A stretch of 64,000 nucleotides of DNA from Candidatus Woesebacteria bacterium (GTDB lineage: Bacteria > Patescibacteriota > Microgenomatia > UBA8517). Both the position numbers and the translations under genes were made by a program. The notes beneath the pieces are model-generated. The model saw nothing but the letters and a program-made list of their open reading frames with translations. It was not told where the DNA came from and did no database searches. Location: assembly GCA_963784785.1 (NCBI GenBank), contig CAWASW010000005.1, positions 9,247-73,246 on the forward strand, in the 5' to 3' direction. The stretch's first letter is position 1. The number at the start of each line of letters is the position of its first letter. This document shows, piece by piece, positions 8,280 to 62,974 of this stretch.

Positions 8280-8344
8280 AAAATGGTCAAGCAAAGCAAG
8301 GCATTACAAATGCATCATGATTACTACGTTCGTTTGTACAATCT
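8280..8344. repeat. 65-bp direct target duplication, left copy (IS1634-like copy 1)
   Basis: Identical to 9991..10055; contains the start codon and first 21 codons of the 108-aa gene. Confidence 0.85.
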
Positions 8345-9990
8345 CCTGACTTCGCCAATTAAGTGCCCTGAATAAAAGATAGAAGTTTGGTATTTTTAAG
8401 AAGTTGAAGTTGCTCTGTTGTTGGTTCTGTAAATTTTGATATTTCTTCATTTGAGATTTTGTCTTTGATAGTAATTTCTTTTAAGCTTGATAGAATTTGT
8501 AGTATCTTTTTTGTGCTTTTGTTGTTTTTAATTTCTGCATATCTTGTAATTGCAAGACTGGTAAAAACAATTAACATGTGGGTTAATATTTTTTCTTTGG
8601 CTGTATGAAATATTGGTCTAGCTTGGAGGTCTGATTTTGTGATTCTAAATGCCTTTTCAACTTGCCAGAGTTCTTGATATTTGGTAATTATTTCTGTGTT
8701 TGTTAATTCTAGTGCATTTGTAACATAACCTTTTAAGCCTTCAAGCTGTTCTGCTTTTTTAAGTTTAGCTTCATTTATTTTCCATTCTTTTTTAATTCCC
8801 TTTTCTTTTTTTAGAAATTTGTAGTTTTTAGTTAAGTTGCTTGGATTATTTAGTGCATAATTTGCTCTTTTTAATTGTTTTTCTCTGTCTGATTTGTCTT
8901 TTGATGCTCTTTTGACTGAGTAGTTGATAATTAAAAATTTAGTTTTTGTAAGTTCAAATCTTTCTGTAGAGCCATCTATTTTAGGTACACTAATTACTTT
9001 TTTAAAAATAGTTTTGTCTAAATTACCAAGTCTTGCTCCAACTATAAACTTTAAGTTTTCTTTTTCCAATTCATCTGTATTTTTCTCACTTAACATACCA
9101 GCATCTGCAACAAGAATAATGTCTTTCAAGGAATGCTTTTTGATGAGGTCTTTCATTACAGGAAGCATTGTGTGGCCTTCAAAAGTATTTCCTTCAAAAG
9201 CCTGCATATGAACAGGGAAACCTTGTTTTGTGACTGTTAAGGAAACAACTATTTGAGGTTGATTTGATTTTTTGTCTTTTGAAAAGCCATTTTTTCTAAA
9301 ATCATCTTCTGTAAAAGATTCATAATATAAAGTTGTGACATCAAAAAATAAAACTGAAATTACAGATGAAATATTTGTTTTGGCAAAATTAAATAACAAA
9401 TCCTCAACTATCTCTTTGTAGCCACCATCAAAGGCTTTTTTCATGCCTCTGTAGATTTCTGTAAGTGAGTATTTGTGATTTAATTTCTCTTCAAGATAAT
9501 TTCTAGTTTCAAGTTTTGAAGTTGGATTTAAAATTCTTGCAATAACAAGATCCTTAAAACAATTGTCTTTTAAGTCATTTAAACCTAAAAAATGATAGTA
9601 AAAATCAAAAAAATTGTAAGAGACAGTATCCATTACTTTGCCAAAAGTTACCTTTGAAAGTAGCTCTTTAAGTTCAGATTGATTAAATCTGTTGTCAAAA
9701 AGTGAAATTCTTCCTTCTTTGATACGACAATCATCAATGTATTTTAAGCCTAATTTTGTAAGTTCAATTAGCTCCAACTCATTTCTTGCAGTTCCAATGT
9801 GCTTCACTATTTTTCTTCTTCCTGAAACTTTTTGGGCAACTTGAACTGATGTATTAGATTTGTTTTTGACCTTTCTTAAGTACATTCAAACCTAATTTTA
9901 GCAAATAAAACAGTAAGTGCCCTAAAGTACATAAAAATACAAACAATTAGCCTCAAGAAGTTACATAAAAACTAGGTTGGCGAAGTCAGG
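8345..9990 (-). mobile_element. IS1634-family-like insertion sequence (IS4 superfamily), copy 1, 1646 bp
   Basis: 14-bp terminal inverted repeats CCTGACTTCGCCAA / TTGGCGAAGTCAGG; 508-aa transposase; long flanking direct repeat. Confidence 0.8.
8359..9885 (-). CDS. IS1634-family-like DDE transposase
   Basis: 508 aa; N-terminus MYLRKVKNKSNTSVQVAQKV...IVKHIGTA resembles IS1634-family transposase N-termini; three near-identical copies in the window (one K/E difference). Confidence 0.8.
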   Translation of the reverse strand: MYLRKVKNKSNTSVQVAQKVSGRRKIVKHIGTARNELELIELTKLGLKYIDDCRIKEGRISLFDNRFNQSELKELLSKVTFGKVMDTVSYNFFDFYYHFLGLNDLKDNCFKDLVIARILNPTSKLETRNYLEEKLNHKYSLTEIYRGMKKAFDGGYKEIVEDLLFNFAKTNISSVISVLFFDVTTLYYESFTEDDFRKNGFSKDKKSNQPQIVVSLTVTKQGFPVHMQAFEGNTFEGHTMLPVMKDLIKKHSLKDIILVADAGMLSEKNTDELEKENLKFIVGARLGNLDKTIFKKVISVPKIDGSTERFELTKTKFLIINYSVKRASKDKSDREKQLKRANYALNNPSNLTKNYKFLKKEKGIKKEWKINEAKLKKAEQLEGLKGYVTNALELTNTEIITKYQELWQVEKAFRITKSDLQARPIFHTAKEKILTHMLIVFTSLAITRYAEIKNNKSTKKILQILSSLKEITIKDKISNEEISKFTEPTTEQLQLLKNTKLLSFIQGT

Positions 9991-10055
9991 AAAATGGTCA
10001 AGCAAAGCAAGGCATTACAAATGCATCATGATTACTACGTTCGTTTGTACAATCT
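9991..10055. repeat. 65-bp direct target duplication, right copy (IS copy 1)
   Basis: Identical to 8280..8344. Confidence 0.85.
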
Positions 10056-10477: not shown

Positions 10478-11221
10478 ATGGTGATGAACAAAAAGAGAAT
10501 ATATGTAATTGGACCATCAGGAAGTGGAAAAACGTATCTTGCTAAAGTAATCTCAAAGCATTTTAACATTCCACATACAAACCTGGATTATGTTTTTTTT
10601 GATCACAAAGTATCTAAAAGTCGTGATGAAGTATCAGATGAAGAGTGGATGAGAAGATTAAATAAGTTAATTGAAGAAGATGATTGGGTTATTGAAGATA
10701 CCGTTGCATAAACGGTCACTTGTTTAGCCTTAAATGATTTGTTGTTTTTCGTTAAAATAATAACACTTTCGTCCGATTACTCGGACAATGCTGAAATTGG
10801 TTGTAGAAGCGTTTACTTAGTGAAACTACCTTTTTAGGCCGAAAGTATAGTAAAATCAGTGTGTTTTAGGAGACCGAAATGTAACGGTCTCGTTATTGAA
10901 GGAGTCAATCCAATTAATGAAGTTTTTGAAATTGCAGATAGAATTATTTTTTTAAGACTAAATATAGTTGAAACGTTAATAAGCCAGTGGGGACGATATC
11001 TAACGGATGAGGTGCAACGCAGAGAACATGGTTTTATCAATAACTTAAAATTATCCAAATATCTTATTAGACAGCACGTAGAAGAAGAAAATTTATCAAA
11101 ATCGGAAGACCCTAAATATTTTAGAATAAGAAAAGTTGATAGAATTTTAAAAAAGTATTCAAACAAAACTGTGATTTTAAACAGCAGAAACGAAGTTAAT
11201 AAATTTATTGAAACTTTATAA
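10478..11221 (+). pseudogene. P-loop NTPase/kinase-like gene (adenylate-kinase-like fold) split by a 195-bp MITE
   Basis: N-part ends ...DWVIED-TVA-stop inside the MITE; C-part resumes ...EGVNPINEVFEIADRIIFL after the MITE; Walker A GPSGSGKT; 9-bp TSD GTTATTGAA on both sides. Confidence 0.65.
10697..10891 (+). mobile_element. 195-bp MITE, copy 1
   Basis: Termini GATACCGTTGCATAAACGGTCAC ... GGAGACCGAAATGTAACGGTCTC (imperfect TIRs, each a hairpin); 9-bp TSD GTTATTGAA at 10688-10696 and 10892-10900. Confidence 0.75.
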
Positions 11222-11822: not shown

Positions 11823-11917
11823 GCTGGCGGTTTACGAAAAATGTCGAACTTCACTTTGTTAGCTCGGCCTTCGGCCTCGCTTGCTCCAGCGCGGCTCCCC
11901 CACCCGCCGCGCCTCCG
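11823..11917. repeat. 95-bp GC-rich inverted repeat, left arm
   Basis: Exact reverse complement of 12968..13062. Confidence 0.85.
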
Positions 11918-11967: not shown

Positions 11968-12828
11968 CTAATCAACATATTCTATTGTAGTCCAGGCACC
12001 ATTTGCAACAATGGTCGCTGTACCAGATGATCCAGCCCGATCACACATCACTTCGTAATACTCGTTGCTACTGGTTGTCTGAATAAAGACTATTGATGTA
12101 TTTGTTCCGTTGTCATCAGTGTCATTTCTCGAATAGGAATATGTCCCGCTCGGGGTATTATAAGTAGTTCCATTTAAACGCACTCTACAGAGAATATTAG
12201 CTCGCGTACCCGTATTATTGTCACTGCTTACGACGTATGTGAGTTTATACCATCCGGCATTTACTAAATAAACTCTTGAATTGTTCGTGGAAGTGCTATG
12301 AGTAAAATATGTGGTATTGACATAACTTTGTGAATCCCAGCTTATCGCAGTAGGAGTAACGGTATTGATGTCCACCCCCCCCGTAGAATCATAGACTTGT
12401 GTAAACTTTCTTGAAAAGTTGATGTCAGTACCACAAACCCAAGAAGAGCTGCTTGTACTCCATTTTAGGACTTGACCATCGGAACAAGTTGTTAAAAGTG
12501 ATACAGAACTTCCCGAATCCCCTTTGTCTCCCTTGTCACCCTTGTCACCTTTAGTACCAGAATCACCTTTAGCACCAGAATCACCTTTAGCACCAGAATC
12601 ACCTTTAGCACTCGTACTTCCCTTACTCCCTGTATTACCTGCAAGACCTGGAACTCCGGAGGCTTCTTGTATTGCTTGAGGTGTAGTTTTAGCAGTAGGC
12701 GTAGTTGATTCTGGTGATGTAGCTCCTTTTTTCATTGAAAAAAAACTCACTGAGGCGTATACGGCAACAAGCGACCCTAAAAGCAAAAGGATTAGACGGT
12801 ATTTATTCATGCTGTAAATAGTATACAA
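11968..12828 (-). CDS. collagen-like (G-x-y) triple-helix repeat surface protein with non-collagen C-terminal domain (BclA/C1q-like architecture)
   Basis: Signal/TM N-terminus, GDSGAKGDSGAKGDSGTKGDKGDKGDKGDSG repeats, about 170-aa Ser/Thr/Asn-rich C-terminal domain. Confidence 0.65.
   Translation of the reverse strand: MYTIYSMNKYRLILLLLGSLVAVYASVSFFSMKKGATSPESTTPTAKTTPQAIQEASGVPGLAGNTGSKGSTSAKGDSGAKGDSGAKGDSGTKGDKGDKGDKGDSGSSVSLLTTCSDGQVLKWSTSSSSWVCGTDINFSRKFTQVYDSTGGVDINTVTPTAISWDSQSYVNTTYFTHSTSTNNSRVYLVNAGWYKLTYVVSSDNNTGTRANILCRVRLNGTTYNTPSGTYSYSRNDTDDNGTNTSIVFIQTTSSNEYYEVMCDRAGSSGTATIVANGAWTTIEYVD
12530..12625. repeat. tandem 18-bp (6-codon GDSGAK) repeats inside the collagen-like gene
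   Basis: accagaatcacctttagc repeated about 3.5 times. Confidence 0.7.
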
Positions 12829-12967: not shown

Positions 12968-13062
12968 CGGAGGCGCGGCGGGTGGGGGAGCCGCGCTGGA
13001 GCAAGCGAGGCCGAAGGCCGAGCTAACAAAGTGAAGTTCGACATTTTTCGTAAACCGCCAGC
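12968..13062. repeat. 95-bp GC-rich inverted repeat, right arm
   Basis: Exact reverse complement of 11823..11917. Confidence 0.85.
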
Positions 13063-13254: not shown

Positions 13255-13410
13255 ATGATTAAATACATCGCATATTGCAGAAAATCTACTGATGAACCCG
13301 ACAGACAAATCTTGTCTATTGAGGCGCAAGTTGCGGAACTTGAAGAACACGCCGCAAAAGAAAACTTGAAGATAGTGTCTTTTATTACCGAAAGTAAAAC
13401 CGCCAAAGAG
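13255..13410 (+). pseudogene. serine recombinase (large-serine-recombinase-like) N-terminal remnant truncated by a MITE
   Basis: IKYIAYCRKSTDE...LSIEAQ matches the catalytic Ser/Arg motif of serine recombinases; ORF runs into the MITE after 52 codons. Confidence 0.6.
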
Positions 13411-13605
13411 GAGACCGTTACATTTCGGTCTCCTAAAACACACTGATTTTACTATACTTTCGGCCTAAAAAGGTAGTTTCACTAAGTAAACGCTTCTACA
13501 ACCAATTTCAGCATTGTCCGAGTAATCGGACGAAAGTGTTATTATTTTAACGAAAAACAACAAATCATTTAAGGCTAAACAAGTGACCGTTTATGCAACG
13601 GTATC
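13411..13605 (-). mobile_element. 195-bp MITE, copy 2 (inverted orientation)
   Basis: Same 195-bp element; truncates the recombinase gene; lies 6 nt from the 3' end of tRNA-Gln; no clear TSD. Confidence 0.7.
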
Positions 13606-13611
13606 CGTCGT

Positions 13612-13685
13612 TGGCTACGGGTCAGGGACTCGGACCCCGATAAGCAGATCCAGAATCTGCTGTCCTGCCATTAGACGAACCCGTA
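13612..13685 (-). tRNA. tRNA-Gln (anticodon CUG), CCA encoded
   Basis: Manual cloverleaf: acceptor TACGGGT/ACCCGTA with U1-A72 and G73, D-arm GTCT-AATGGCA-GGAC, anticodon arm GCAGA-TTCTGGA-TCTGC, T-arm CGGGG-TCCGAGT-CCCTG (unusual C at position 55). Confidence 0.6.
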
Positions 13686-14283: not shown

Positions 14284-14949
14284 ATGATACGAAAGACTTC
14301 AAAAATTTTATCTAACTTAGAATATTTTGTAAAAGGTAATAACCCAAAACTTCTAATACATTGTGGTACTTATGGAGATGAATACGACGTTGTGAAACAC
14401 GTAGAGAATGCTGTCATAAAGTATGAGGAACAATTGCCAGATTTTGTTTTTGTGCCGATTGTTTCTCCGTCTGCTGTCAAATTGAGAACTCGAATTAACG
14501 ATAACGGAAAAGATTTGAATAGAATATTTTTCTCAGATTCAACTGATCCTGAGGTTTTGGCAAACATAGAAATTATCGGTGAAAACAAATATGACTTGTT
14601 TGTCAGTTTCCATGAGGATTTTGAATTTCCTGATTATTACATCTATGATGAGGGTTTTACTAATCTAAAACAGAATATGATTCTAAATCATAATTCACAA
14701 ATTTCAAAATTAGGATTTACTCTATTCAACGGCATAGATGACCCAATTCTGAATAACGTCTTTTTAAATGGGTACAAAAAAATAGTAATTAACAAAGATA
14801 CAAGAAATAATGGAATGATTACAAGTTGGATGTTATCTGAAGGAAAGGTACTTGATACATTAAATCCTGAAATACCTATGAATTTAGATTCAAATTCAAA
14901 GAAGAAAATTATAGATACATTTTTTGAAAATGTTTTGTGCTATTCTTAA
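14284..14949 (+). CDS. hypothetical protein (weak resemblance to M14/desuccinylase-like hydrolases)
   Basis: 221-aa ORF; HCGTYGDEYD loosely HGG-HGNE-like. Confidence 0.35.
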   Translation: MIRKTSKILSNLEYFVKGNNPKLLIHCGTYGDEYDVVKHVENAVIKYEEQLPDFVFVPIVSPSAVKLRTRINDNGKDLNRIFFSDSTDPEVLANIEIIGENKYDLFVSFHEDFEFPDYYIYDEGFTNLKQNMILNHNSQISKLGFTLFNGIDDPILNNVFLNGYKKIVINKDTRNNGMITSWMLSEGKVLDTLNPEIPMNLDSNSKKKIIDTFFENVLCYS

Positions 14950-15469
14950 ATCTTCTGCACATTAATCCCCAGCCTTTAGGCTGGTGGAGCAAGTATAGTT
15001 TGTGGCATACTTGAGGGAAATGTTAAAGTACTGGCATGGTGCACACACAAAGCACAGAATTATGATTCATTTGGTATTTTTACCAAAATACAGAAAAAGG
15101 ATATTACGTGGCAAAGTAGCTACAAGACTTAAAGACTTATTCTTCAAAGCATGTGAGGTTAACAACTGGTGGATTGAAGAAATTACAATATTGCATGATC
15201 ATGTACATATGCTTATACAAATCCAACCAAACTTGTCCATCTCAAAAGTTGTTAACCAACTGAAAGGTGGTTCATCAAGAATCTTAAGGAAAGAATTTCC
15301 AGAGTTAGAAGAATTTCTTTGGGGTGACTCATTCTGGTCTGATGGCTACTTTGCAGAATCAGTGGGTGCAACAAGTTTCATCCAGGTTAAAAAATACATT
15401 AAAAATCAAGTGGAAAGTATGCCACAGAAGGGGTAAAACCATGGCATTTATGCCATGTGTTTTTTATTG
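14949..15469 (+). mobile_element. IS200/IS605-family element (tnpA only), copy 1, 521 bp
   Basis: Subterminal hairpins CCAGCC-TTTA-GGCTGG (left) and CCATGGCAT-TT-ATGCCATGG (right); identical to copies at 26863 and 37072. Confidence 0.8.
15002..15436 (+). CDS. tnpA: IS200/IS605 family Y1 (HUH) transposase TnpA
   Basis: 144 aa; HuH motif HVHMLIQ and catalytic Tyr region SDGYFAESVG. Confidence 0.85.
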   Translation: MAYLREMLKYWHGAHTKHRIMIHLVFLPKYRKRILRGKVATRLKDLFFKACEVNNWWIEEITILHDHVHMLIQIQPNLSISKVVNQLKGGSSRILRKEFPELEEFLWGDSFWSDGYFAESVGATSFIQVKKYIKNQVESMPQKG

Positions 15470-19887: not shown

Positions 19888-19945
19888 TTTTTTGTCCTTT
19901 GTGACGCTTTAGTCGTAGTCTCAAGCGGAGCTAAGCGAAGCGAAG

Positions 19946-21133
19946 GAGACCGTTCTATTTCGGTCACCTAAAATGAATTGTTTATCTCCTATTTTCAATC
20001 AAAAAAGGTAGTTTCACTCAGTGAACTTGTAGTTAAAATGAGGTATGATTCACGCATGAAAAAAGAGAAAGAGTTTATAGTTGTCCAAAATGTGGGAGTA
20101 TTCACACAATCAGAAAAGGAGTTAGGAGAGGAAAAATTAAGTATTTTTGCAAAATATGTGGAGCTTGGTTTCAGTTAAACAGAAGGCCAAAATTAAACAG
20201 TTCTTCTTTGGTTACAGACCATTTTTTAGGTTTATCATTTAGATCCCTAGGTTCAAAATCAGATGTTTTAGGAAGCACAGCTTACAGAAGATATCAATCT
20301 CAGATTGAAAACAAGTTGCAATGTATTGATATCACAAGACTTTATTGTTCTAAATTTTGTGGAATACTTTTAGTTGATGGAAAATATATCAAAGTTAAAG
20401 GATACGAAAGAAAAATACCAGTTATCTATGGAATTGATTATCTCACACACGACATTGTACATTTTGTGCTTGGTCCATCTGAAAATTACAGATTATTACT
20501 TAAGTTTTTCTCTTCACTAAAGTTATCAAATTATCCACTTCAAGCAATTGTTTCAGATGACAATCAGAACACGCCACAGGCGTGTTTAAAGGTTTATCCT
20601 ACTGCAATCTGGCAACTTTGCCAGAATCACTACAAACAAAATATTAGAGGTACTTTAGGACTTTACAAAGACCTATCACACCTTAAATTTATGAATGAAA
20701 TTGAAGTTCTTTTTTCAAGAAAAATGGAAACAGGAGAATTCAAAAAACTAGCTTCAAAAATATATGACAGATACAAGGGAAACAAACTAGAAACACAAAT
20801 TATGCTTGATATTGCAAAAAGATCTCCTGATCTTTTTGCATATACAAAGGTTCATCATGTTCCTAGAACAAACAACTTAATTGAAAGCTTCAACTCACAT
20901 CTTGAAGGGAGATTAAAAACAATTAAAGGATTTGAAAACTTCAAAACGGCAAAACTCTGGTTAAACCAATATTTTATTAAAAGAAGAACAAAAAAGTTTA
21001 CAGACTGCACAAAACATTTCAAGAATTTAAATGGAAAATGCTCGTTAGAAGTTACCTTAAAAGACCCCTATATTTTAAAAGATGTTTTGAAGCTAATTAA
21101 TTAAAATCAGGTGACCGTTTATGCAACGGTATC
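19946..21133 (+). mobile_element. IS1595-family-like insertion sequence (1188 bp) with TIRs related to the 195-bp MITE
   Basis: IRL GAGACCGTTCTATTTCGGTCACC, IRR GGTGACCGTTTATGCAACGGTATC; encodes a Zn-ribbon plus DDE transposase. Confidence 0.65.
20056..21104 (+). pseudogene. IS1595-family transposase, frameshifted near the 5' end
   Basis: ATG at 20056 followed by an A6 run; Zn-ribbon CPKCGSIHT...CKICGAWF lies in a different frame, continuous with the 298-aa DDE domain ORF (DGKY, SDDN, TNNLIESFNSHLEGRLK motifs). Confidence 0.6.
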
Positions 21134-21143
21134 CAGCGAAGTG

Positions 21144-21338
21144 GAGACCGTTACATTTCGGTCTCCTAAAACACACTGATTTTACTATACTTTCGGCCTA
21201 AAAAGGTAGTTTCACTAAGTAAACGCTTCTACAACCAATTTCAGCATTGTCCGAGTAATCGGACGAAAGTGTTATTATTTTAACGAAAAACAACAAATCA
21301 TTTAAGGCTAAACAAGTGACCGTTTATGCAACGGTATC
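21144..21338 (-). mobile_element. 195-bp MITE, copy 3
   Basis: Complete copy with 9-bp TSD AGCGAAGTG (21135-21143 and 21339-21347); abuts the IS1595-like right end and the tRNA-Glu 3' end. Confidence 0.75.
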
Positions 21339-21346
21339 AGCGAAGT

Positions 21347-21417
21347 GACGCTTATGAGAGTCGGACTCATATTTCTTGGATGAGAACCAAGTGTCCTAGC
21401 CGTTAGACGAAAGCGCC
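21347..21417 (-). tRNA. tRNA-Glu (anticodon CUC)
   Basis: Manual cloverleaf: acceptor GGCGCTT/AAGCGTC (one G-U), D-arm GTCT-AACGGCTA-GGAC, anticodon arm CTTGG-TTCTCAT-CCAAG, T-arm ATGAG-TCCGACT-CTCAT (C55); MITE TSD overlaps the discriminator. Confidence 0.5.
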
Positions 21418-26690: not shown

Positions 26691-26862
26691 CCTGATGAAT
26701 AAAAAAATATTGTTTGAAAATCTTGTTATAGTGAGAAAATTGAATTTGCTGTCGTCGATAGAAAAAGCAAAAGACGCGAGAGACAATGCTCCGGATGCAA
26801 CTGAAAGTCATTCTGATACTAGGAGAAATCAGGCAGAAAAACTTGTGGTTGCGTTAGAAATT

Positions 26863-27384
26863 GAATCTTCTGCACATTAATCCCCAGCCTTTAGGCTGGT
26901 GGAGCAAGTATAGTTTGTGGCATACTTGAGGGAAATGTTAAAGTACTGGCATGGTGCACACACAAAGCACAGAATTATGATTCATTTGGTATTTTTACCA
27001 AAATACAGAAAAAGGATATTACGTGGCAAAGTAGCTACAAGACTTAAAGACTTATTCTTCAAAGCATGTGAGGTTAACAACTGGTGGATTGAAGAAATTA
27101 CAATATTGCATGATCATGTACATATGCTTATACAAATCCAACCAAACTTGTCCATCTCAAAAGTTGTTAACCAACTGAAAGGTGGTTCATCAAGAATCTT
27201 AAGGAAAGAATTTCCAGAGTTAGAAGAATTTCTTTGGGGTGACTCATTCTGGTCTGATGGCTACTTTGCAGAATCAGTGGGTGCAACAAGTTTCATCCAG
27301 GTTAAAAAATACATTAAAAATCAAGTGGAAAGTATGCCACAGAAGGGGTAAAACCATGGCATTTATGCCATGTGTTTTTTATTT
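26863..27384 (+). mobile_element. IS200/IS605-family element, copy 2 (identical to copy 1)
   Basis: Same 521-bp sequence and terminal hairpins. Confidence 0.8.
26917..27351 (+). CDS. tnpA: IS200/IS605 family transposase TnpA
   Basis: Identical 144-aa protein. Confidence 0.85.
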   Translation: MAYLREMLKYWHGAHTKHRIMIHLVFLPKYRKRILRGKVATRLKDLFFKACEVNNWWIEEITILHDHVHMLIQIQPNLSISKVVNQLKGGSSRILRKEFPELEEFLWGDSFWSDGYFAESVGATSFIQVKKYIKNQVESMPQKG

Positions 27385-30878: not shown

Positions 30879-30886
30879 TAATTTTT
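30879..30886. repeat. 8-bp TSD TAATTTTT, left copy (IS1595-like element 2)
   Basis: Same octamer at 32018-32025. Confidence 0.7.
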
Positions 30887-32017
30887 GGCTTAATGGAACT
30901 AATGTGTTGTTTTTCTAATCCTGTTTTGTTTTATTATCGGCCTTCATTTTTTCAAAGTTGTAATAATATACAAACCATTTAAGGTAACTTTCCCAACGAG
31001 TCTTTTTAAGGCCTTTATGTCTTAACCATCTTTGTCCTATATGCCCAAATGTAGCTTCAATTTCATTTGTTGTTTTTGGCATAGTTGGGTGGTCTAAAAA
31101 CTTGAATGAGGTTTTTGGAAGTTTAATTAGGATCCTGACAGCTTTTCTCACACCTTTATGAATATACCAACTGTGGCCAGAATCATCTGTCCTCATCTCT
31201 TTCAGAAAGAAGAAATTAGCCTTAACCCAATCTTTTAAGATTGTTTCCCAGTATTTCAAAGCTTCATGACTTTCTATGAACCAAATGTGGTTTGCAATTT
31301 TTATTAATTCTTCAATTCTTCTATCTTTTGAGTGTCTACCAAGTGCATTTACAATATCTCTATGCATATGAGCAAGACATATCTGATGTGGAGAGTGGGG
31401 GATACACTTCATCAACCGCAGAACAAATGGCAGTTCCTCCATCTGTTACAGAGCCTGAAAATGTGTATTTTAATTCCTCCTTTATGAACCTCAAATCCTT
31501 AACTATTTTTGTTGAAGCCTCTCTACCAGCAATAGATACATGCAAAAGGTACAAAGTTCCACTTTGTCTATACAGCATCAAGACAAACCATCTTCCAAAC
31601 CAAAGCCCATCAATCAAAAGATATGCAGTATCAATTCTTCCAGACAAAGTTTGATCAAATCTAGGAAGTTTTGGAGGATCAAGAAGCAATAACTTATGAA
31701 ATTCACCCTCCAAATATCTTACAGACAAACCTGAGACAGAAGACAGCATTTCATATGTCAAACCCCACAAAATATACTGTCTGAAAAGATCAACTACTTT
31801 AAAATCTTTCTTTTTATTGTGGTAAATTCTTGAAGTTTTACAAACTTTACAAAACCATCTTTTCTTTCCAGTTCCAGTCTTTCCCCACAGAAACATTTTA
31901 CTATTACAGGATATGCACAAAAGTGTTCTTTGACCCATTGAATACTATTCAAACTCAAAATGAGGCGTATTATCAACTATATCTTTCTGTTATATCAACA
32001 CACTATGCTATTAAGCC
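30887..32017 (-). mobile_element. IS1595-family-like insertion sequence 2 (1131 bp) with frameshifted transposase
   Basis: TIRs GGCTTAATGGAACTAATGTGTTG / CAACACACTATGCTATTAAGCC; 8-bp TSD; Zn-ribbon plus DDE transposase split across two overlapping ORFs. Confidence 0.75.
30915..31938 (-). pseudogene. IS1595-family transposase split into two overlapping ORFs (31360-31938 and 30915-31442)
   Basis: N-terminal C-x2-C...C-x2-C Zn ribbon; DDE region with LIDGLWFG, TDGGTA, KTTNEIEATFGHIGQRWLRHKGL. Confidence 0.65.
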
Positions 32018-36345: not shown

Positions 36346-37071
36346 ATTCACTAAAGAATTAATAATAGTTTTTTTAATATGTGTTTTGGCTTTTTGTTTA
36401 AGAATTTATAAAATAAACACAGATCTTTTGTATCATAGAGATCAAGGTTTGGTCGCCATGGATATATACAAGATTTGGCATGATAAAAAAGTGTCTTTGC
36501 TTGGGGCACCTACCGACGTAGATGGCCTATTTCACTCCCCTGTGTATTATTGGATTTTAACCCCATTTTACGCACTTGGTCGCGGGGATATCGTTTATCC
36601 TGCTATTTTTCAGATCCTGATTGAAATATTGTCTCTACCTTTTTTGTATCTTGCGGTCAAAAAACTATTTAGCAAAGAAATAGCCTTTACTACATTAATA
36701 TTTTATGCTGTGTCATATGGTTTAATATCATACAGCCGTTGGTTTATTACTGTTCCGTTTATTTTGCCTCTTACTAACATACTTCTGTACACTTTAGTTT
36801 TTGAAAAGGGAATTTTTATTAATTCATTAATCATTGGAATGATATCCCAAACTAATGCTGCTGTTGGTATTTTTTATTTGCCATTTTTGCTGTTTACTTT
36901 TAGGAAAAATTTAAATTTTAAAAATATTTTACTTTTGTTGATTGGATTTTTAATCCCTGCTATACCACTAGTGCTATTTCAATTTAGACATGATTTTATA
37001 ACCATCAAGACGATTCTTAACTATTCAGGCAGCTCTTCTGCTGGTTTAGGTTTTTCAGTAGATGTTATTTT

Positions 37072-37593
37072 AAATCTTCTGCACATTAATCCCCAGCCTT
37101 TAGGCTGGTGGAGCAAGTATAGTTTGTGGCATACTTGAGGGAAATGTTAAAGTACTGGCATGGTGCACACACAAAGCACAGAATTATGATTCATTTGGTA
37201 TTTTTACCAAAATACAGAAAAAGGATATTACGTGGCAAAGTAGCTACAAGACTTAAAGACTTATTCTTCAAAGCATGTGAGGTTAACAACTGGTGGATTG
37301 AAGAAATTACAATATTGCATGATCATGTACATATGCTTATACAAATCCAACCAAACTTGTCCATCTCAAAAGTTGTTAACCAACTGAAAGGTGGTTCATC
37401 AAGAATCTTAAGGAAAGAATTTCCAGAGTTAGAAGAATTTCTTTGGGGTGACTCATTCTGGTCTGATGGCTACTTTGCAGAATCAGTGGGTGCAACAAGT
37501 TTCATCCAGGTTAAAAAATACATTAAAAATCAAGTGGAAAGTATGCCACAGAAGGGGTAAAACCATGGCATTTATGCCATGTGTTTTTTATTA
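37072..37593 (+). mobile_element. IS200/IS605-family element, copy 3 (identical)
   Basis: Same 521-bp sequence. Confidence 0.8.
37126..37560 (+). CDS. tnpA: IS200/IS605 family transposase TnpA
   Basis: Identical 144-aa protein. Confidence 0.85.
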   Translation: MAYLREMLKYWHGAHTKHRIMIHLVFLPKYRKRILRGKVATRLKDLFFKACEVNNWWIEEITILHDHVHMLIQIQPNLSISKVVNQLKGGSSRILRKEFPELEEFLWGDSFWSDGYFAESVGATSFIQVKKYIKNQVESMPQKG

Positions 37594-39397: not shown

Positions 39398-39723
39398 AAA
39401 TAAAAGTCATTGTAAATGACATGATGCAAAAGGGCTATGAATATCACTTAACTTCTTCGATCGGTAAAGATTTTGACCCTAATTTCACTCCTGAATTAAC
39501 ACCGAAAGAAATGTTAGAACTTGGTGTTTTTGGTGGTAAATACATGACAGATTGCAAAGATGAATTTCCAAAAGATTGGTATAAAAATGCAAAATTATGT
39601 CATGAATTTCATAATCCAAAATTAAATTTTTTCAAAATTAGTGCAAGTGAGTTTCTTTCTGTTTGGAGACAAAAAGGATGGATATTTGATGAAGATCCGA
39701 GAGGATGGGATACCGTTGCATAA
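39394..39723 (+). pseudogene. hypothetical gene interrupted by a MITE and then an IS1634-like element; C-terminal part resumes at 41795-41882
   Basis: Removing the MITE gives an in-frame read-through ...DEDPRGW-FQWYCRYYMGRRNE..., which is the ORF found after the IS (41649-41882). Confidence 0.6.
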
Positions 39724-39903
39724 ACGGTCACTTGTTTAGCCTTAAATGATTTGTTGTTTTTCGTTAAAATAATAACACTTTCGTCCGATTACTCGGACAA
39801 TGCTGAAATTGGTTGTAGAAGCGTTTACTTAGTGAAACTACCTTTTTAGGCCGAAAGTATAGTAAAATCAGTGTGTTTTAGGAGACCGAAATGTAACGGT
39901 CTC
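39709..39903 (+). mobile_element. 195-bp MITE, copy 4
   Basis: 9-bp TSD AGAGGATGG at 39700-39708 and 39904-39912. Confidence 0.75.
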
Positions 39904-40016
39904 AGAGGATGGTTCCAATGGTATTGTAGATATTATATGGGTAGGAGAAATGAAAAAATAGATCAAATTCAGATCGAAAGGTGGAAGTCAATGAAAAGAC
40001 ATATTGCACAACTAGT
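39885..40016. repeat. 132-bp direct target duplication, left copy (IS copy 2); includes the last 19 bp of the MITE
   Basis: Identical to 41663..41794. Confidence 0.85.
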
Positions 40017-41662
40017 CCTGACTTCGCCAACCTAGTTTTTATGTAACTTCTTGAGGCTAATTGTTTGTATTTTTATGTACTTTAGGGCACTTACTGTTTT
40101 ATTTGCTAAAATTAGGTTTGAATGTACTTAAGAAAGGTCAAAAACAAATCTAATACATCAGTTCAAGTTGCCCAAAAAGTTTCAGGAAGAAGAAAAATAG
40201 TGAAGCACATTGGAACTGCAAGAAATGAGTTGGAGCTAATTGAACTTACAAAATTAGGCTTAAAATACATTGATGATTGTCGTATCAAAGAAGGAAGAAT
40301 TTCACTTTTTGACAACAGATTTAATCAATCTGAACTTAAAGAGCTACTTTCAAAGGTAACTTTTGGCAAAGTAATGGATACTGTCTCTTACAATTTTTTT
40401 GATTTTTACTATCATTTTTTAGGTTTAAATGACTTAAAAGACAATTGTTTTAAGGATCTTGTTATTGCAAGAATTTTAAATCCAACTTCAAAACTTGAAA
40501 CTAGAAATTATCTTGAAGAGAAATTAAATCACAAATACTCACTTACAGAAATCTACAGAGGCATGAAAAAAGCCTTTGATGGTGGCTACAAAGAGATAGT
40601 TGAGGATTTGTTATTTAATTTTGCCAAAACAAATATTTCATCTGTAATTTCAGTTTTATTTTTTGATGTCACAACTTTATATTATGAATCTTTTACAGAA
40701 GATGATTTTAGAAAAAATGGCTTTTCAAAAGACAAAAAATCAAATCAACCTCAAATAGTTGTTTCCTTAACAGTCACAAAACAAGGTTTCCCTGTTCATA
40801 TGCAGGCTTTTGAAGGAAATACTTTTGAAGGCCACACAATGCTTCCTGTAATGAAAGACCTCATCAAAAAGCATTCCTTGAAAGACATTATTCTTGTTGC
40901 AGATGCTGGTATGTTAAGTGAGAAAAATACAGATGAATTGGAAAAAGAAAACTTAAAGTTTATAGTTGGAGCAAGACTTGGTAATTTAGACAAAACTATT
41001 TTTGAAAAAGTAATTAGTGTACCTAAAATAGATGGCTCTACAGAAAGATTTGAACTTACAAAAACTAAATTTTTAATTATCAACTACTCAGTCAAAAGAG
41101 CATCAAAAGACAAATCAGACAGAGAAAAACAATTAAAAAGAGCAAATTATGCACTAAATAATCCAAGCAACTTAACTAAAAACTACAAATTTCTAAAAAA
41201 AGAAAAGGGAATTAAAAAAGAATGGAAAATAAATGAAGCTAAACTTAAAAAAGCAGAACAGCTTGAAGGCTTAAAAGGTTATGTTACAAATGCACTAGAA
41301 TTAACAAACACAGAAATAATTACCAAATATCAAGAACTCTGGCAAGTTGAAAAGGCATTTAGAATCACAAAATCAGACCTCCAAGCTAGACCAATATTTC
41401 ATACAGCCAAAGAAAAAATATTAACCCACATGTTAATTGTTTTTACCAGTCTTGCAATTACAAGATATGCAGAAATTAAAAACAACAAAAGCACAAAAAA
41501 GATACTACAAATTCTATCAAGCTTAAAAGAAATTACTATCAAAGACAAAATCTCAAATGAAGAAATATCAAAATTTACAGAACCAACAACAGAGCAACTT
41601 CAACTTCTTAAAAATACCAAACTTCTATCTTTTATTCAGGGCACTTAATTGGCGAAGTCAGG
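40017..41662 (+). mobile_element. IS1634-family-like insertion sequence, copy 2
   Basis: Same 1646-bp element and TIRs as copy 1. Confidence 0.8.
40122..41648 (+). CDS. IS1634-family-like DDE transposase
   Basis: 508 aa, identical to copy 3. Confidence 0.8.
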   Translation: MYLRKVKNKSNTSVQVAQKVSGRRKIVKHIGTARNELELIELTKLGLKYIDDCRIKEGRISLFDNRFNQSELKELLSKVTFGKVMDTVSYNFFDFYYHFLGLNDLKDNCFKDLVIARILNPTSKLETRNYLEEKLNHKYSLTEIYRGMKKAFDGGYKEIVEDLLFNFAKTNISSVISVLFFDVTTLYYESFTEDDFRKNGFSKDKKSNQPQIVVSLTVTKQGFPVHMQAFEGNTFEGHTMLPVMKDLIKKHSLKDIILVADAGMLSEKNTDELEKENLKFIVGARLGNLDKTIFEKVISVPKIDGSTERFELTKTKFLIINYSVKRASKDKSDREKQLKRANYALNNPSNLTKNYKFLKKEKGIKKEWKINEAKLKKAEQLEGLKGYVTNALELTNTEIITKYQELWQVEKAFRITKSDLQARPIFHTAKEKILTHMLIVFTSLAITRYAEIKNNKSTKKILQILSSLKEITIKDKISNEEISKFTEPTTEQLQLLKNTKLLSFIQGT

Positions 41663-41794
41663 ACCGAAATGTAACGGTCTCAGAGGATGGTTCCAATGGT
41701 ATTGTAGATATTATATGGGTAGGAGAAATGAAAAAATAGATCAAATTCAGATCGAAAGGTGGAAGTCAATGAAAAGACATATTGCACAACTAGT
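41663..41794. repeat. 132-bp direct target duplication, right copy
   Basis: Identical to 39885..40016. Confidence 0.85.
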
Positions 41795-60996: not shown

Positions 60997-61162
60997 AGTT
61001 TTGCCTGTGTGGTATTTGTAAATAAAAGTTTGAATTAAAAAATCAAATAATAAAAAACAATACCGCACGGCAAGAACAAATTCTCCAAAAAGGACTATTT
61101 TGATACTTGACTTTATGTTTAGCCCTGCTAATATACAAATATGTATATAAAAAGGTCTGTTT
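60997..61162. repeat. 166-bp direct target duplication, left copy (IS copy 3)
   Basis: Identical to 62809..62974; contains the promoter region and first 7 codons of the downstream AAA ATPase gene. Confidence 0.85.
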
Positions 61163-62808
61163 CCTGACTTCGCCAATTAAGTGCCCTGAATAAAAGATAG
61201 AAGTTTGGTATTTTTAAGAAGTTGAAGTTGCTCTGTTGTTGGTTCTGTAAATTTTGATATTTCTTCATTTGAGATTTTGTCTTTGATAGTAATTTCTTTT
61301 AAGCTTGATAGAATTTGTAGTATCTTTTTTGTGCTTTTGTTGTTTTTAATTTCTGCATATCTTGTAATTGCAAGACTGGTAAAAACAATTAACATGTGGG
61401 TTAATATTTTTTCTTTGGCTGTATGAAATATTGGTCTAGCTTGGAGGTCTGATTTTGTGATTCTAAATGCCTTTTCAACTTGCCAGAGTTCTTGATATTT
61501 GGTAATTATTTCTGTGTTTGTTAATTCTAGTGCATTTGTAACATAACCTTTTAAGCCTTCAAGCTGTTCTGCTTTTTTAAGTTTAGCTTCATTTATTTTC
61601 CATTCTTTTTTAATTCCCTTTTCTTTTTTTAGAAATTTGTAGTTTTTAGTTAAGTTGCTTGGATTATTTAGTGCATAATTTGCTCTTTTTAATTGTTTTT
61701 CTCTGTCTGATTTGTCTTTTGATGCTCTTTTGACTGAGTAGTTGATAATTAAAAATTTAGTTTTTGTAAGTTCAAATCTTTCTGTAGAGCCATCTATTTT
61801 AGGTACACTAATTACTTTTTCAAAAATAGTTTTGTCTAAATTACCAAGTCTTGCTCCAACTATAAACTTTAAGTTTTCTTTTTCCAATTCATCTGTATTT
61901 TTCTCACTTAACATACCAGCATCTGCAACAAGAATAATGTCTTTCAAGGAATGCTTTTTGATGAGGTCTTTCATTACAGGAAGCATTGTGTGGCCTTCAA
62001 AAGTATTTCCTTCAAAAGCCTGCATATGAACAGGGAAACCTTGTTTTGTGACTGTTAAGGAAACAACTATTTGAGGTTGATTTGATTTTTTGTCTTTTGA
62101 AAAGCCATTTTTTCTAAAATCATCTTCTGTAAAAGATTCATAATATAAAGTTGTGACATCAAAAAATAAAACTGAAATTACAGATGAAATATTTGTTTTG
62201 GCAAAATTAAATAACAAATCCTCAACTATCTCTTTGTAGCCACCATCAAAGGCTTTTTTCATGCCTCTGTAGATTTCTGTAAGTGAGTATTTGTGATTTA
62301 ATTTCTCTTCAAGATAATTTCTAGTTTCAAGTTTTGAAGTTGGATTTAAAATTCTTGCAATAACAAGATCCTTAAAACAATTGTCTTTTAAGTCATTTAA
62401 ACCTAAAAAATGATAGTAAAAATCAAAAAAATTGTAAGAGACAGTATCCATTACTTTGCCAAAAGTTACCTTTGAAAGTAGCTCTTTAAGTTCAGATTGA
62501 TTAAATCTGTTGTCAAAAAGTGAAATTCTTCCTTCTTTGATACGACAATCATCAATGTATTTTAAGCCTAATTTTGTAAGTTCAATTAGCTCCAACTCAT
62601 TTCTTGCAGTTCCAATGTGCTTCACTATTTTTCTTCTTCCTGAAACTTTTTGGGCAACTTGAACTGATGTATTAGATTTGTTTTTGACCTTTCTTAAGTA
62701 CATTCAAACCTAATTTTAGCAAATAAAACAGTAAGTGCCCTAAAGTACATAAAAATACAAACAATTAGCCTCAAGAAGTTACATAAAAACTAGGTTGGCG
62801 AAGTCAGG
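61163..62808 (-). mobile_element. IS1634-family-like insertion sequence, copy 3
   Basis: Same 1646-bp element and TIRs. Confidence 0.8.
61177..62703 (-). CDS. IS1634-family-like DDE transposase
   Basis: 508 aa, identical to copy 2. Confidence 0.8.
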   Translation of the reverse strand: MYLRKVKNKSNTSVQVAQKVSGRRKIVKHIGTARNELELIELTKLGLKYIDDCRIKEGRISLFDNRFNQSELKELLSKVTFGKVMDTVSYNFFDFYYHFLGLNDLKDNCFKDLVIARILNPTSKLETRNYLEEKLNHKYSLTEIYRGMKKAFDGGYKEIVEDLLFNFAKTNISSVISVLFFDVTTLYYESFTEDDFRKNGFSKDKKSNQPQIVVSLTVTKQGFPVHMQAFEGNTFEGHTMLPVMKDLIKKHSLKDIILVADAGMLSEKNTDELEKENLKFIVGARLGNLDKTIFEKVISVPKIDGSTERFELTKTKFLIINYSVKRASKDKSDREKQLKRANYALNNPSNLTKNYKFLKKEKGIKKEWKINEAKLKKAEQLEGLKGYVTNALELTNTEIITKYQELWQVEKAFRITKSDLQARPIFHTAKEKILTHMLIVFTSLAITRYAEIKNNKSTKKILQILSSLKEITIKDKISNEEISKFTEPTTEQLQLLKNTKLLSFIQGT

Positions 62809-62974
62809 AGTTTTGCCTGTGTGGTATTTGTAAATAAAAGTTTGAATTAAAAAATCAAATAATAAAAAACAATACCGCACGGCAAGAACAAATTCTCCAA
62901 AAAGGACTATTTTGATACTTGACTTTATGTTTAGCCCTGCTAATATACAAATATGTATATAAAAAGGTCTGTTT
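62809..62974. repeat. 166-bp direct target duplication, right copy
   Basis: Identical to 60997..61162. Confidence 0.85.

Follow-up and report, generated by a model that had tools for sequence, protein, structure and literature searches.

A 195-bp MITE, its zinc-ribbon IS256-type relatives and an oriented preference for tRNA 3' flanks

A family of bacterial insertion sequences and MITEs has a strong, oriented preference for the 3' flanks of tRNA genes, with a geometry that is not random. Most simple bacterial IS are loose in their choice of target. The smallest member of the family described here is a 195-bp repeat, which occurs four times (c1 to c4, Table 1) in the window, that is, the whole 64,000-nt stretch of DNA that was analysed. 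The repeat is a non-coding, mobile MITE. This is clear from its TIRs and TSDs, the identity of its copies, the restoration of ORFs when it is excised and the existence of a cognate IS. Probably, it is a non-autonomous MITE of a zinc-ribbon branch of the IS256 type, mobilised in trans and integrating in two modes, with the tRNA 3' flank as the preferred site.

The preliminary description of this DNA had reported four nearly identical copies. In fact, the four match at all 195 positions once c2 and c3 are reverse-complemented. The strands in Table 1 follow the orientation of the IS, from a GAGACC left end to a GATACC right end. The shared end motif has 10 occurrences in the window (eight MITE ends and two IS ends) versus none in 100 shuffles. 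The termini had been quoted correctly as imperfect TIRs, each end of which can form a hairpin: they match at 16 of 23 positions and are both built around the palindrome ACCG-N-CGGT, with a perfect 7+8+7 palindrome at the GAGACC end and a stem of 6 bp at the GATACC end. Perfect 9-bp TSDs flank three of the four copies in the window, again as first described. They are GTTATTGAA at c1 (10688-10696 and 10892-10900), AGCGAAGTG at c3 (21135-21143 and 21339-21347) and AGAGGATGG at c4. No TSD was found when the flanks of c2 were checked. The MITE has no ORF of its own. Exact-match scans with its ends returned one genome match and two metagenome matches (L001-L003). One of these contigs, L001, is a 379-kb MAG contig of another assembly and holds a fifth copy, 195/195 identical, in an unrelated context and flanked by a repeat of just 7-8 bp. 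Exact-match scans of viral contigs gave no match, and blastn of the MITE against plasmids found nothing.

Table 1. Coordinates of the MITE copies, the resident IS and associated features in the window
Feature	Position	Strand	Remarks
MITE c1	10697..10891	-	within P-loop kinase gene
Serine recombinase N-terminal stub	13255..13410	+	Pfam Resolvase, 3e-06; cut by MITE c2
MITE c2	13411..13605	+	GATACC right end 9 nt past tRNA-Gln discriminator; without TSD
tRNA-Gln(ctg)	13612..13685	-	ARAGORN; Rfam 51.1 bits; 3' end faces right end of c2
Resident autonomous-type IS, 1188 bp	19946..21133	+	IS256 superfamily, zinc-ribbon N-terminus
Transposase gene	20056..21104	+	ATG 20056; A6 run 20059-20064; zinc-ribbon and DDE frame 20058-21104, one base off the ATG
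MITE c3	21144..21338	+	between resident IS and tRNA-Glu; 7 nt past discriminator
tRNA-Glu(ctc)	21345..21417	-	ARAGORN; Rfam 55.8 bits; 3' end faces right end of c3
MITE c4	39709..39903	-	within gene of unknown function
20-nt MITE left-terminus copy	41662..41681	-	part of 134-nt target repeat of IS1634-type element 40016-41663

The effect of the MITE on genes corroborates its mobility. In-silico removal of c1 and one TSD yields an intact 179-aa P-loop kinase ORF. At c4 a 169-aa ORF appears when the MITE and its TSD are removed together with a later IS1634 insertion and the 134-nt repeat of the latter. This repeat gives the order of events: it includes the final 20 nt of c4, which shows that the MITE was there before the IS1634 element. 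Both ORFs truncated by the MITE finish in ...DTVA*, which agrees with the claim that two copies cut genes short and donate the same C-terminus. A third copy had been said to truncate a serine recombinase. This holds for c2, which interrupts a Resolvase-domain ORF after about 51 residues.

Other mobile elements are present in the window. Three identical 1648-bp IS1634-family elements (8344-9991, 40016-41663 and 61162-62809) encode a 508-aa transposase (NCBIfam, 2.3e-95) and have unusually long flanking direct repeats of 65, 134 and 166 nt, respectively. An IS200/IS605-type element with a Y1 transposase (Pfam Y1_Tnp, 9e-41) also occurs three times, at 14946-15468, 37070-37592 and approximately 26861-27351; two of its copies are identical over 523 bp. 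Finally, a 1132-bp IS with the TIR GGCTTAATGG... is found at 30886-32017 and, 100% identical between the assemblies, at 855-1986 of L001. Its TSD is 8 bp long (TAATTTTT in the window and CGAAAACT in L001), and its two overlapping ORFs have an N-terminal CxxC...CxxC motif and a weak match, below the cut-off, to the IS66-type DDE domain.

What if the repeat was copied by means other than transposition, as a gene for a structured RNA or as a terminator module linked to tRNA genes? Its folds are more stable than those of shuffled sequences (z = -3.0 and -2.85) and include two terminator-like hairpins, one of which is positioned to stop read-through from a tRNA gene. However, the folding signal comes mostly from pairing of one TIR with the other, Rfam has no match to the MITE at E<=1 and a promoter scan of it gave no promoter-like site. 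The TSDs, the TIRs, the gene-disrupting copies and the cognate transposase-encoding IS all point to transposition, and an origin as an RNA or terminator module is scarcely credible. The narrower idea that the MITE is an intrinsic terminator of tRNA read-through was also considered. A candidate was flagged (ACCGTTGCATAAACGGT+CACTTGTTTA), but its T-rich tail is not conserved in the right ends of family IS, in which this stretch codes for the transposase C-terminus. Terminator activity of the MITE is a side effect at most.

The missing TSD of c2 has a likely explanation. Its left flank is the serine recombinase stub and its right flank is tRNA-Gln, so that c2 looks like a hybrid produced by recombination between two copies. 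Similar events are visible elsewhere in the family. Locus L009 is an intact insertion at a tRNA-Ser gene with the TSD TCTGCGGAG, and L011 and L015 have reciprocal combinations of the flanks of this site and those of a tRNA-Pro site (TSD GGTTGGTCG). Reciprocal flanks indicate recombination between family copies. The flanks of L028 and L030 behave in the same way. Recombination of the L011/L015 kind explains both the flanks of c2 and its lack of a TSD. A separate observation concerns the DNA next to the serine recombinase stub, which adjoins a segment in which a perfect 95-nt inverted repeat (11823-11917 and 12968-13062) surrounds a collagen-repeat gene (11968-12828, minus strand). The segment may be invertible, with its recombinase now lost.

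The probable source of the MITE's mobility is to be sought in the family of the resident IS, the ends of which are GAGACCGTTCTATTTCGGTCACC and GGTGACCGTTTATGCAACGGTATC. Independent support for the boundaries of this IS comes from the public contig L004, which is exactly 1188 bp long and identical to it. Its ends had been described as closely related to those of the MITE, and the alignment confirms this with 23/23 matches at the right end and 20/23 at the left. The internal block reported to be shared is the 17-nt sequence AAAAAGGTAGTTTCACT, which is exact in both elements. Beyond the ends, nt 1-81 of the MITE align to the left arm of the IS at about 78% and the last 29 nt match at 27 positions. 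Alignment found no counterpart in the resident IS for the central ~85 nt of the MITE. The MITE right end is also 90-97% identical to the right ends of other family IS over 32-34 nt. For the ends of the family as a whole, the consensus is GAKACCGTT-N5-6-YGGTCWC on the left and ACCGTT-N4-5-AACGGT on the right. The MITE had been proposed to be an internal-deletion derivative of the resident IS that is mobilised in trans. One half of this proposal stands, as the TIRs match those of the IS and mobilisation in trans is therefore plausible. The other half needs revision, because an element of which only nt 1-81 and the last 29 nt align is not a simple deletion. Judged from these alignments, the MITE is not a recent deletion of the resident copy, and its parent was another member of the same family.

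A difference between the 9-bp TSD of the MITE and an 8-bp TSD of the IS had been regarded as a puzzle. It falls away, as relatives of the resident IS give 9-bp TSDs. Duplications of this length are found at ten insertions, namely c1, c3, c4 and the IS copies L005, L009, L020, L025, L026, L027 and L028. The resident IS itself lies at a site that was hit twice, between AAGCGAAG and CAGCGAAG, which form an imperfect 7-of-8 repeat. The best reconstruction of this tRNA-Glu site is that the IS inserted first, 8 nt past the discriminator base, and that the MITE then inserted between the IS and the tRNA gene, duplicating CACTTCGCT; this leaves one base mismatched. A/T-rich TSDs of 8 bp have been described for ISCth4 and IS256 (PMC7780238). 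In L026 (approximately 2550-2610) a degenerate family right end in inverted orientation (ACACCGTTTCGGAAC) lies beyond the IS right end and its 9-bp TSD, which suggests an insertion beside an older remnant.

To which family does the resident IS belong? It had been called IS1595-like, a designation that does not survive closer analysis. The transposase matches Pfam Transposase_mut (PF00872) with 41.8 bits against a cut-off of 21. The NCBIfam matches are weaker, with 69.4 bits for transpos_IS256, 47.2 for IS256_Zn_var and 34.7 for IS1249 (cut-offs 150, 150 and 300, respectively). Since these scores lie below the curated IS256 cut-offs, membership is at the superfamily level and the element is a divergent branch. 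At the N-terminus a CxxC...CxxC zinc ribbon precedes helices, and none of the 41 aligned homologs deviates at the DDE triad D107, D168 and E276. An AlphaFold model of the protein (pLDDT 89.4) has ISCth4 for all of its five best fold matches in the PDB (best E 1.7e-11, TM 0.55-0.60), and phmmer against PDB sequences found nothing. The Pfam domain, the weak NCBIfam matches and the fold match together place the MITE and the resident IS in an uncharacterised zinc-ribbon branch of the IS256/Mutator-type DDE family, one without a name in the databases searched. The branch is abundant. There are 771 transposase homologs at E<=1e-10, mostly on contigs of about 1.2 kb, which predominate because a multi-copy repeat breaks short-read assemblies. 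Many of the related contigs come from groundwater metagenomes. A tblastn search with the transposase found no relatives in the plasmid and phage collections.

The view that the MITE is an internal-deletion derivative of a resident IS1595-family element draws on the related TIRs of MITE and IS and on the N-terminal zinc ribbon, which matches NCBIfam IS1_IS1595_Zn with 32 bits, a model common to IS1 and IS1595. What does not fit is the rest of the evidence. Pfam and NCBIfam searches of the transposase found no IS1595 DDE domain and the protein instead has the Transposase_mut match and the ISCth4-like fold. The TSD is 9 bp, not the 8 bp of the IS1595 type, and the centre of the MITE as well as 22% of its left arm differ from the resident IS. 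This derivation is very improbable. A further feature of the IS is a conserved palindrome, TTCACnnnGTGAA, about 65 nt inside the left end (20013-20025). It is also present in L009, L020 and L027, its two halves co-vary in L009 (TCAACTAGGTTGA) and it is degenerate in the MITE. The palindrome may be an operator or part of a promoter.

The transposase of the resident IS had been described as frameshifted. This is correct in that the gene has a single defect, one A too few in an A-run at codons 2-3, and adding one A gives a 349-aa ORF that begins MKKRERVYSCPKCGS. The implication of decay is less certain, as the same defect recurs in the family. A run of A6 or A7 directly follows the start codon in nine copies (the resident IS, L005, L019, L020, L025, L027, L028, L033 and L002). 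Of these nine, with their ATG or GTG and A-run start, eight are out of frame in the recovered DNA, five needing one additional base and three needing one fewer. The exception is L002, an 87% identical copy with an in-frame A7. In addition, many database homologs are annotated without the zinc ribbon. The recurrent frame offset, as read from these sequences, may reflect regulated slippage or phase variation rather than decay.

The association with tRNA genes is apparent in the window itself. Rfam found no tRNA in the 64 kb besides tRNA-Gln and tRNA-Glu, and both of them have a MITE at the 3' end. Two copies had been placed within 6-9 nt of these 3' ends, and ARAGORN and Rfam agree: the 3' ends given by ARAGORN each lie 6 nt from the MITE end (distances from the discriminator base are in Table 1). 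The right end of the resident IS lies 10 nt beyond MITE c3 at tRNA-Glu. That two of the four copies in the window lie at its only two tRNA genes has P = 7e-8. A 9-nt match to the 3' end of tRNA-Glu, GTGACGCTT at 19901-19909, was judged compatible with chance.

The tendency had been proposed for the MITE, and it proves to be family-wide and stronger than was claimed. Insertions of the family were sampled regardless of tRNA genes, either by exact matches to the ends (L001-L003) or from homolog-encoding contigs picked by length or number and not by content. This small sample, made up of metagenome contigs, has 23 independent right-end junctions, and at 11 of them the discriminator base of a tRNA gene is followed by the element after 4-9 nt. 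The tRNA genes concerned are Gln (c2), Glu (c3), Met (L001 and L022), a class II tRNA (L003), Ser-gga (L009), Pro-cgg (L011), Pro-ggg (L020), Ser-gct (L025), Val (L034) and Ile (L035), with nine anticodon types among them. The gaps between discriminator and element are 4, 5, 5, 6, 6, 7, 7, 7, 8, 9 and 9 nt. The orientation is the same in all eleven, with the tRNA reading toward the IS right end, the end that follows the transposase stop codon. None of the left ends in the sampled junctions abuts a tRNA gene. The transposases at the tRNA-adjacent sites are mutually 52-70% identical. The resident IS at tRNA-Glu is a twelfth case, outside the eleven of 23. Double hits are seen at two tRNA genes, at tRNA-Glu with the IS preceding the MITE and at tRNA-Ile as the tandem or junction form of L039 and L040. 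The tRNA gene is intact in these insertions, its terminus lying within or right beside the 9-bp duplication. At c3, for example, the TSD covers positions 72-73 of tRNA-Glu, which means that the tRNA end is regenerated. For none of the tRNA-adjacent copies was an allele with an empty site recovered.

Two further arrangements were seen at tRNA genes. At 2161-2770 of L003, a solo 39-nt IS right end lies 5 nt past the tRNA discriminator (4 nt past the ARAGORN 3' end), and directly next to it, in the place of the transposase, is an HNH-endonuclease-like ORF. L039 and L040 are cyclic contigs of 1211 nt from two samples, in which the IS right end is joined to the left end through 12 nt, ACCATCGGTGGG. 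This bridge is the flank on the tRNA-Ile side, and the contigs represent either a circle junction or tandem copies.

Could the pattern have arisen without any targeting? In this scenario insertion is random and only harmless sites, such as the short trailer of a tRNA gene, persist in gene-dense genomes. The genomes are indeed compact, half of the sites are away from tRNA genes, and c1 and c4, which disrupt genes, are young, given their 100% identity to the other copies. However, survivorship accounts neither for a window only 6 nt wide nor for the fact that all 11 cases share one orientation and that some tRNA genes were hit more than once. If chance would give 1e-3 per site, a generous rate, at least 11 in 23 has a probability of 1e-27, and the value is still 6e-20 when only intergenic DNA is allowed (chance rate 5e-3). 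Survivorship on its own is improbable as the explanation.

The preference for tRNA flanks is nevertheless partial, as 12 of the 23 junctions are not tRNA-adjacent and two of the four copies in the window are within genes. A permissive Rfam scan of ten non-tRNA loci for hidden tRNA remnants found only non-adjacent tRNAs. The spread of the gaps over 4-9 nt argues against a mechanism that reads sequence rigidly. Moreover, with so many tRNA types among the targets, the cue would have to be a feature that tRNA genes share and not a specific sequence. What if this feature is simply a stem? The element might insert 5-10 nt 3' of the base of any stable stem, tRNA genes being merely the commonest such structure and terminator hairpins and the element's own ends being others. 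At six non-tRNA loci (L005, L021, L026, L028, L030 and L033) a strong hairpin does end 1-11 nt before the element, four of the 12 non-tRNA sites are beyond the 5th percentile of random controls and the element's own termini are hairpins. The overall comparison of folded non-tRNA flanks with 150 random controls gives a Mann-Whitney p of 0.11 and is confounded by GC differences between loci. In addition, c1, c4 and L002 have no convincing stem. A general preference for stems seems to us on the unlikely side.

The reading preferred here, a trans-mobilised MITE with a favoured site at tRNA 3' flanks, suggests the following sequence of events. The MITE keeps both of its putative transposase-binding termini and about 80 nt of left subterminal sequence, and encodes nothing. 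A transposase of the family would move it in trans. By analogy with ISCth4 and IS256, the route would be copy-out/paste-in by way of an end-to-end junction, and integration would follow a 9-bp staggered cut. In the preferred mode, which would account for about half of the sites seen, the right end would be placed 4-9 nt past the tRNA discriminator with the tRNA reading toward the element. The 9-bp duplication would then regenerate the tRNA 3' terminus and keep the tRNA gene intact. In the fallback mode, insertion would occur elsewhere, including in genes, as at c1 and c4. The tRNA bias presumably reflects an active choice of target.

A bolder version can be formulated, to which we give an even chance. 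An IS256-type DDE lineage and its MITEs would actively and directionally target the 3' boundary of tRNA genes through a common feature, as a protein-only prokaryotic counterpart of the 'safe haven' of eukaryotic retroelements, and a slippage switch at the A-run would keep the transposase mostly off. If the family does land reliably and without damage just past tRNA genes, it would add a new case to the DDE transposases that select their target site. Testing this would be easy, as every organism has tRNA genes and mutated versions can be placed on a target plasmid. The persistence of a mutagenic element in the very small, gene-dense genomes of uncultivated bacteria would then have an explanation, and a compact protein-only system for insertion at safe sites would be suggested. 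For annotation, an abundant family with 771 homologs matters because its edges cause breaks in metagenome assemblies and its copies give rise to rearrangements with one another (c2, L011/L015 and L028/L030).

How does this family compare with known systems? A literature search yielded no account of a bacterial IS that targets tRNA 3' ends, which is not proof of novelty. IS-derived MITEs of bacteria, for example RUP from IS630-Spn1 and the Correia elements, are short and non-coding, have TIRs, TSDs and near-identical copies, and can truncate or extend ORFs. The 195-bp MITE resembles them in being non-coding, in its TIRs and TSDs and in having ends in common with a transposase-encoding IS. It differs in its IS256-like parent family and its oriented association with tRNA 3' ends.

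Genes for tRNA are also the targets of tyrosine-integrase islands and phages (tRNA 3' halves), type V-K CAST (which home close to tRNA genes), and the eukaryotic elements Ty3 and Dictyostelium TRE. The cofactors of Ty3 and TRE are the Pol III factors TFIIIB and TFIIIC, which are absent from bacteria. Common to all of these and the present family is the use of tRNA genes as safe landing sites with the gene preserved. However, the present family consists of simple DDE IS whose 9-bp TSD varies in sequence and which lack an integrase, att-core identity and a guide RNA. Integrase-mediated integration at tRNA sites was rejected on similar grounds, as no integrase is encoded and the 9-bp duplications are of unrelated sequence at nine anticodon types.

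With IS256 and ISCth4 the family shares the Transposase_mut domain, a similarly spaced DDE triad and the best fold match, to ISCth4. It also has a single ORF, a length of about 1.2 kb, imperfect TIRs and a TSD within the 8-9 bp of that family. The end-to-end junctions of L039/L040 fit a circle or tandem intermediate. The preference for tRNA 3' flanks is, to our knowledge, unreported for either IS256 or ISCth4. Other differences are the scores below the NCBIfam IS256 cut-offs, the N-terminal CxxC...CxxC zinc ribbon and the palindromic hairpin termini. The TSD is 9 bp as opposed to 8 bp in ISCth4 and IS256 (PMC7780238). ISCth4 is the IS256-family transposase with a solved structure, and ISCth4 and IS256 use a copy-out/paste-in mechanism (PMC7780238).

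The nearest analogues of the tRNA targeting itself are found in other families. Elements of the IS1202 group adjoin dif/pdif sites (PMC10132070), and some IS insert into REP sequences (PMC1525189). Like the present family, these are DDE elements that are found again and again near a functional chromosomal site that itself recurs, with the short distance and the orientation both fixed. The landmark of the present family, in contrast, is neither a REP palindrome nor a site bound by a recombinase but the 3' boundary of tRNA genes of varied sequence.
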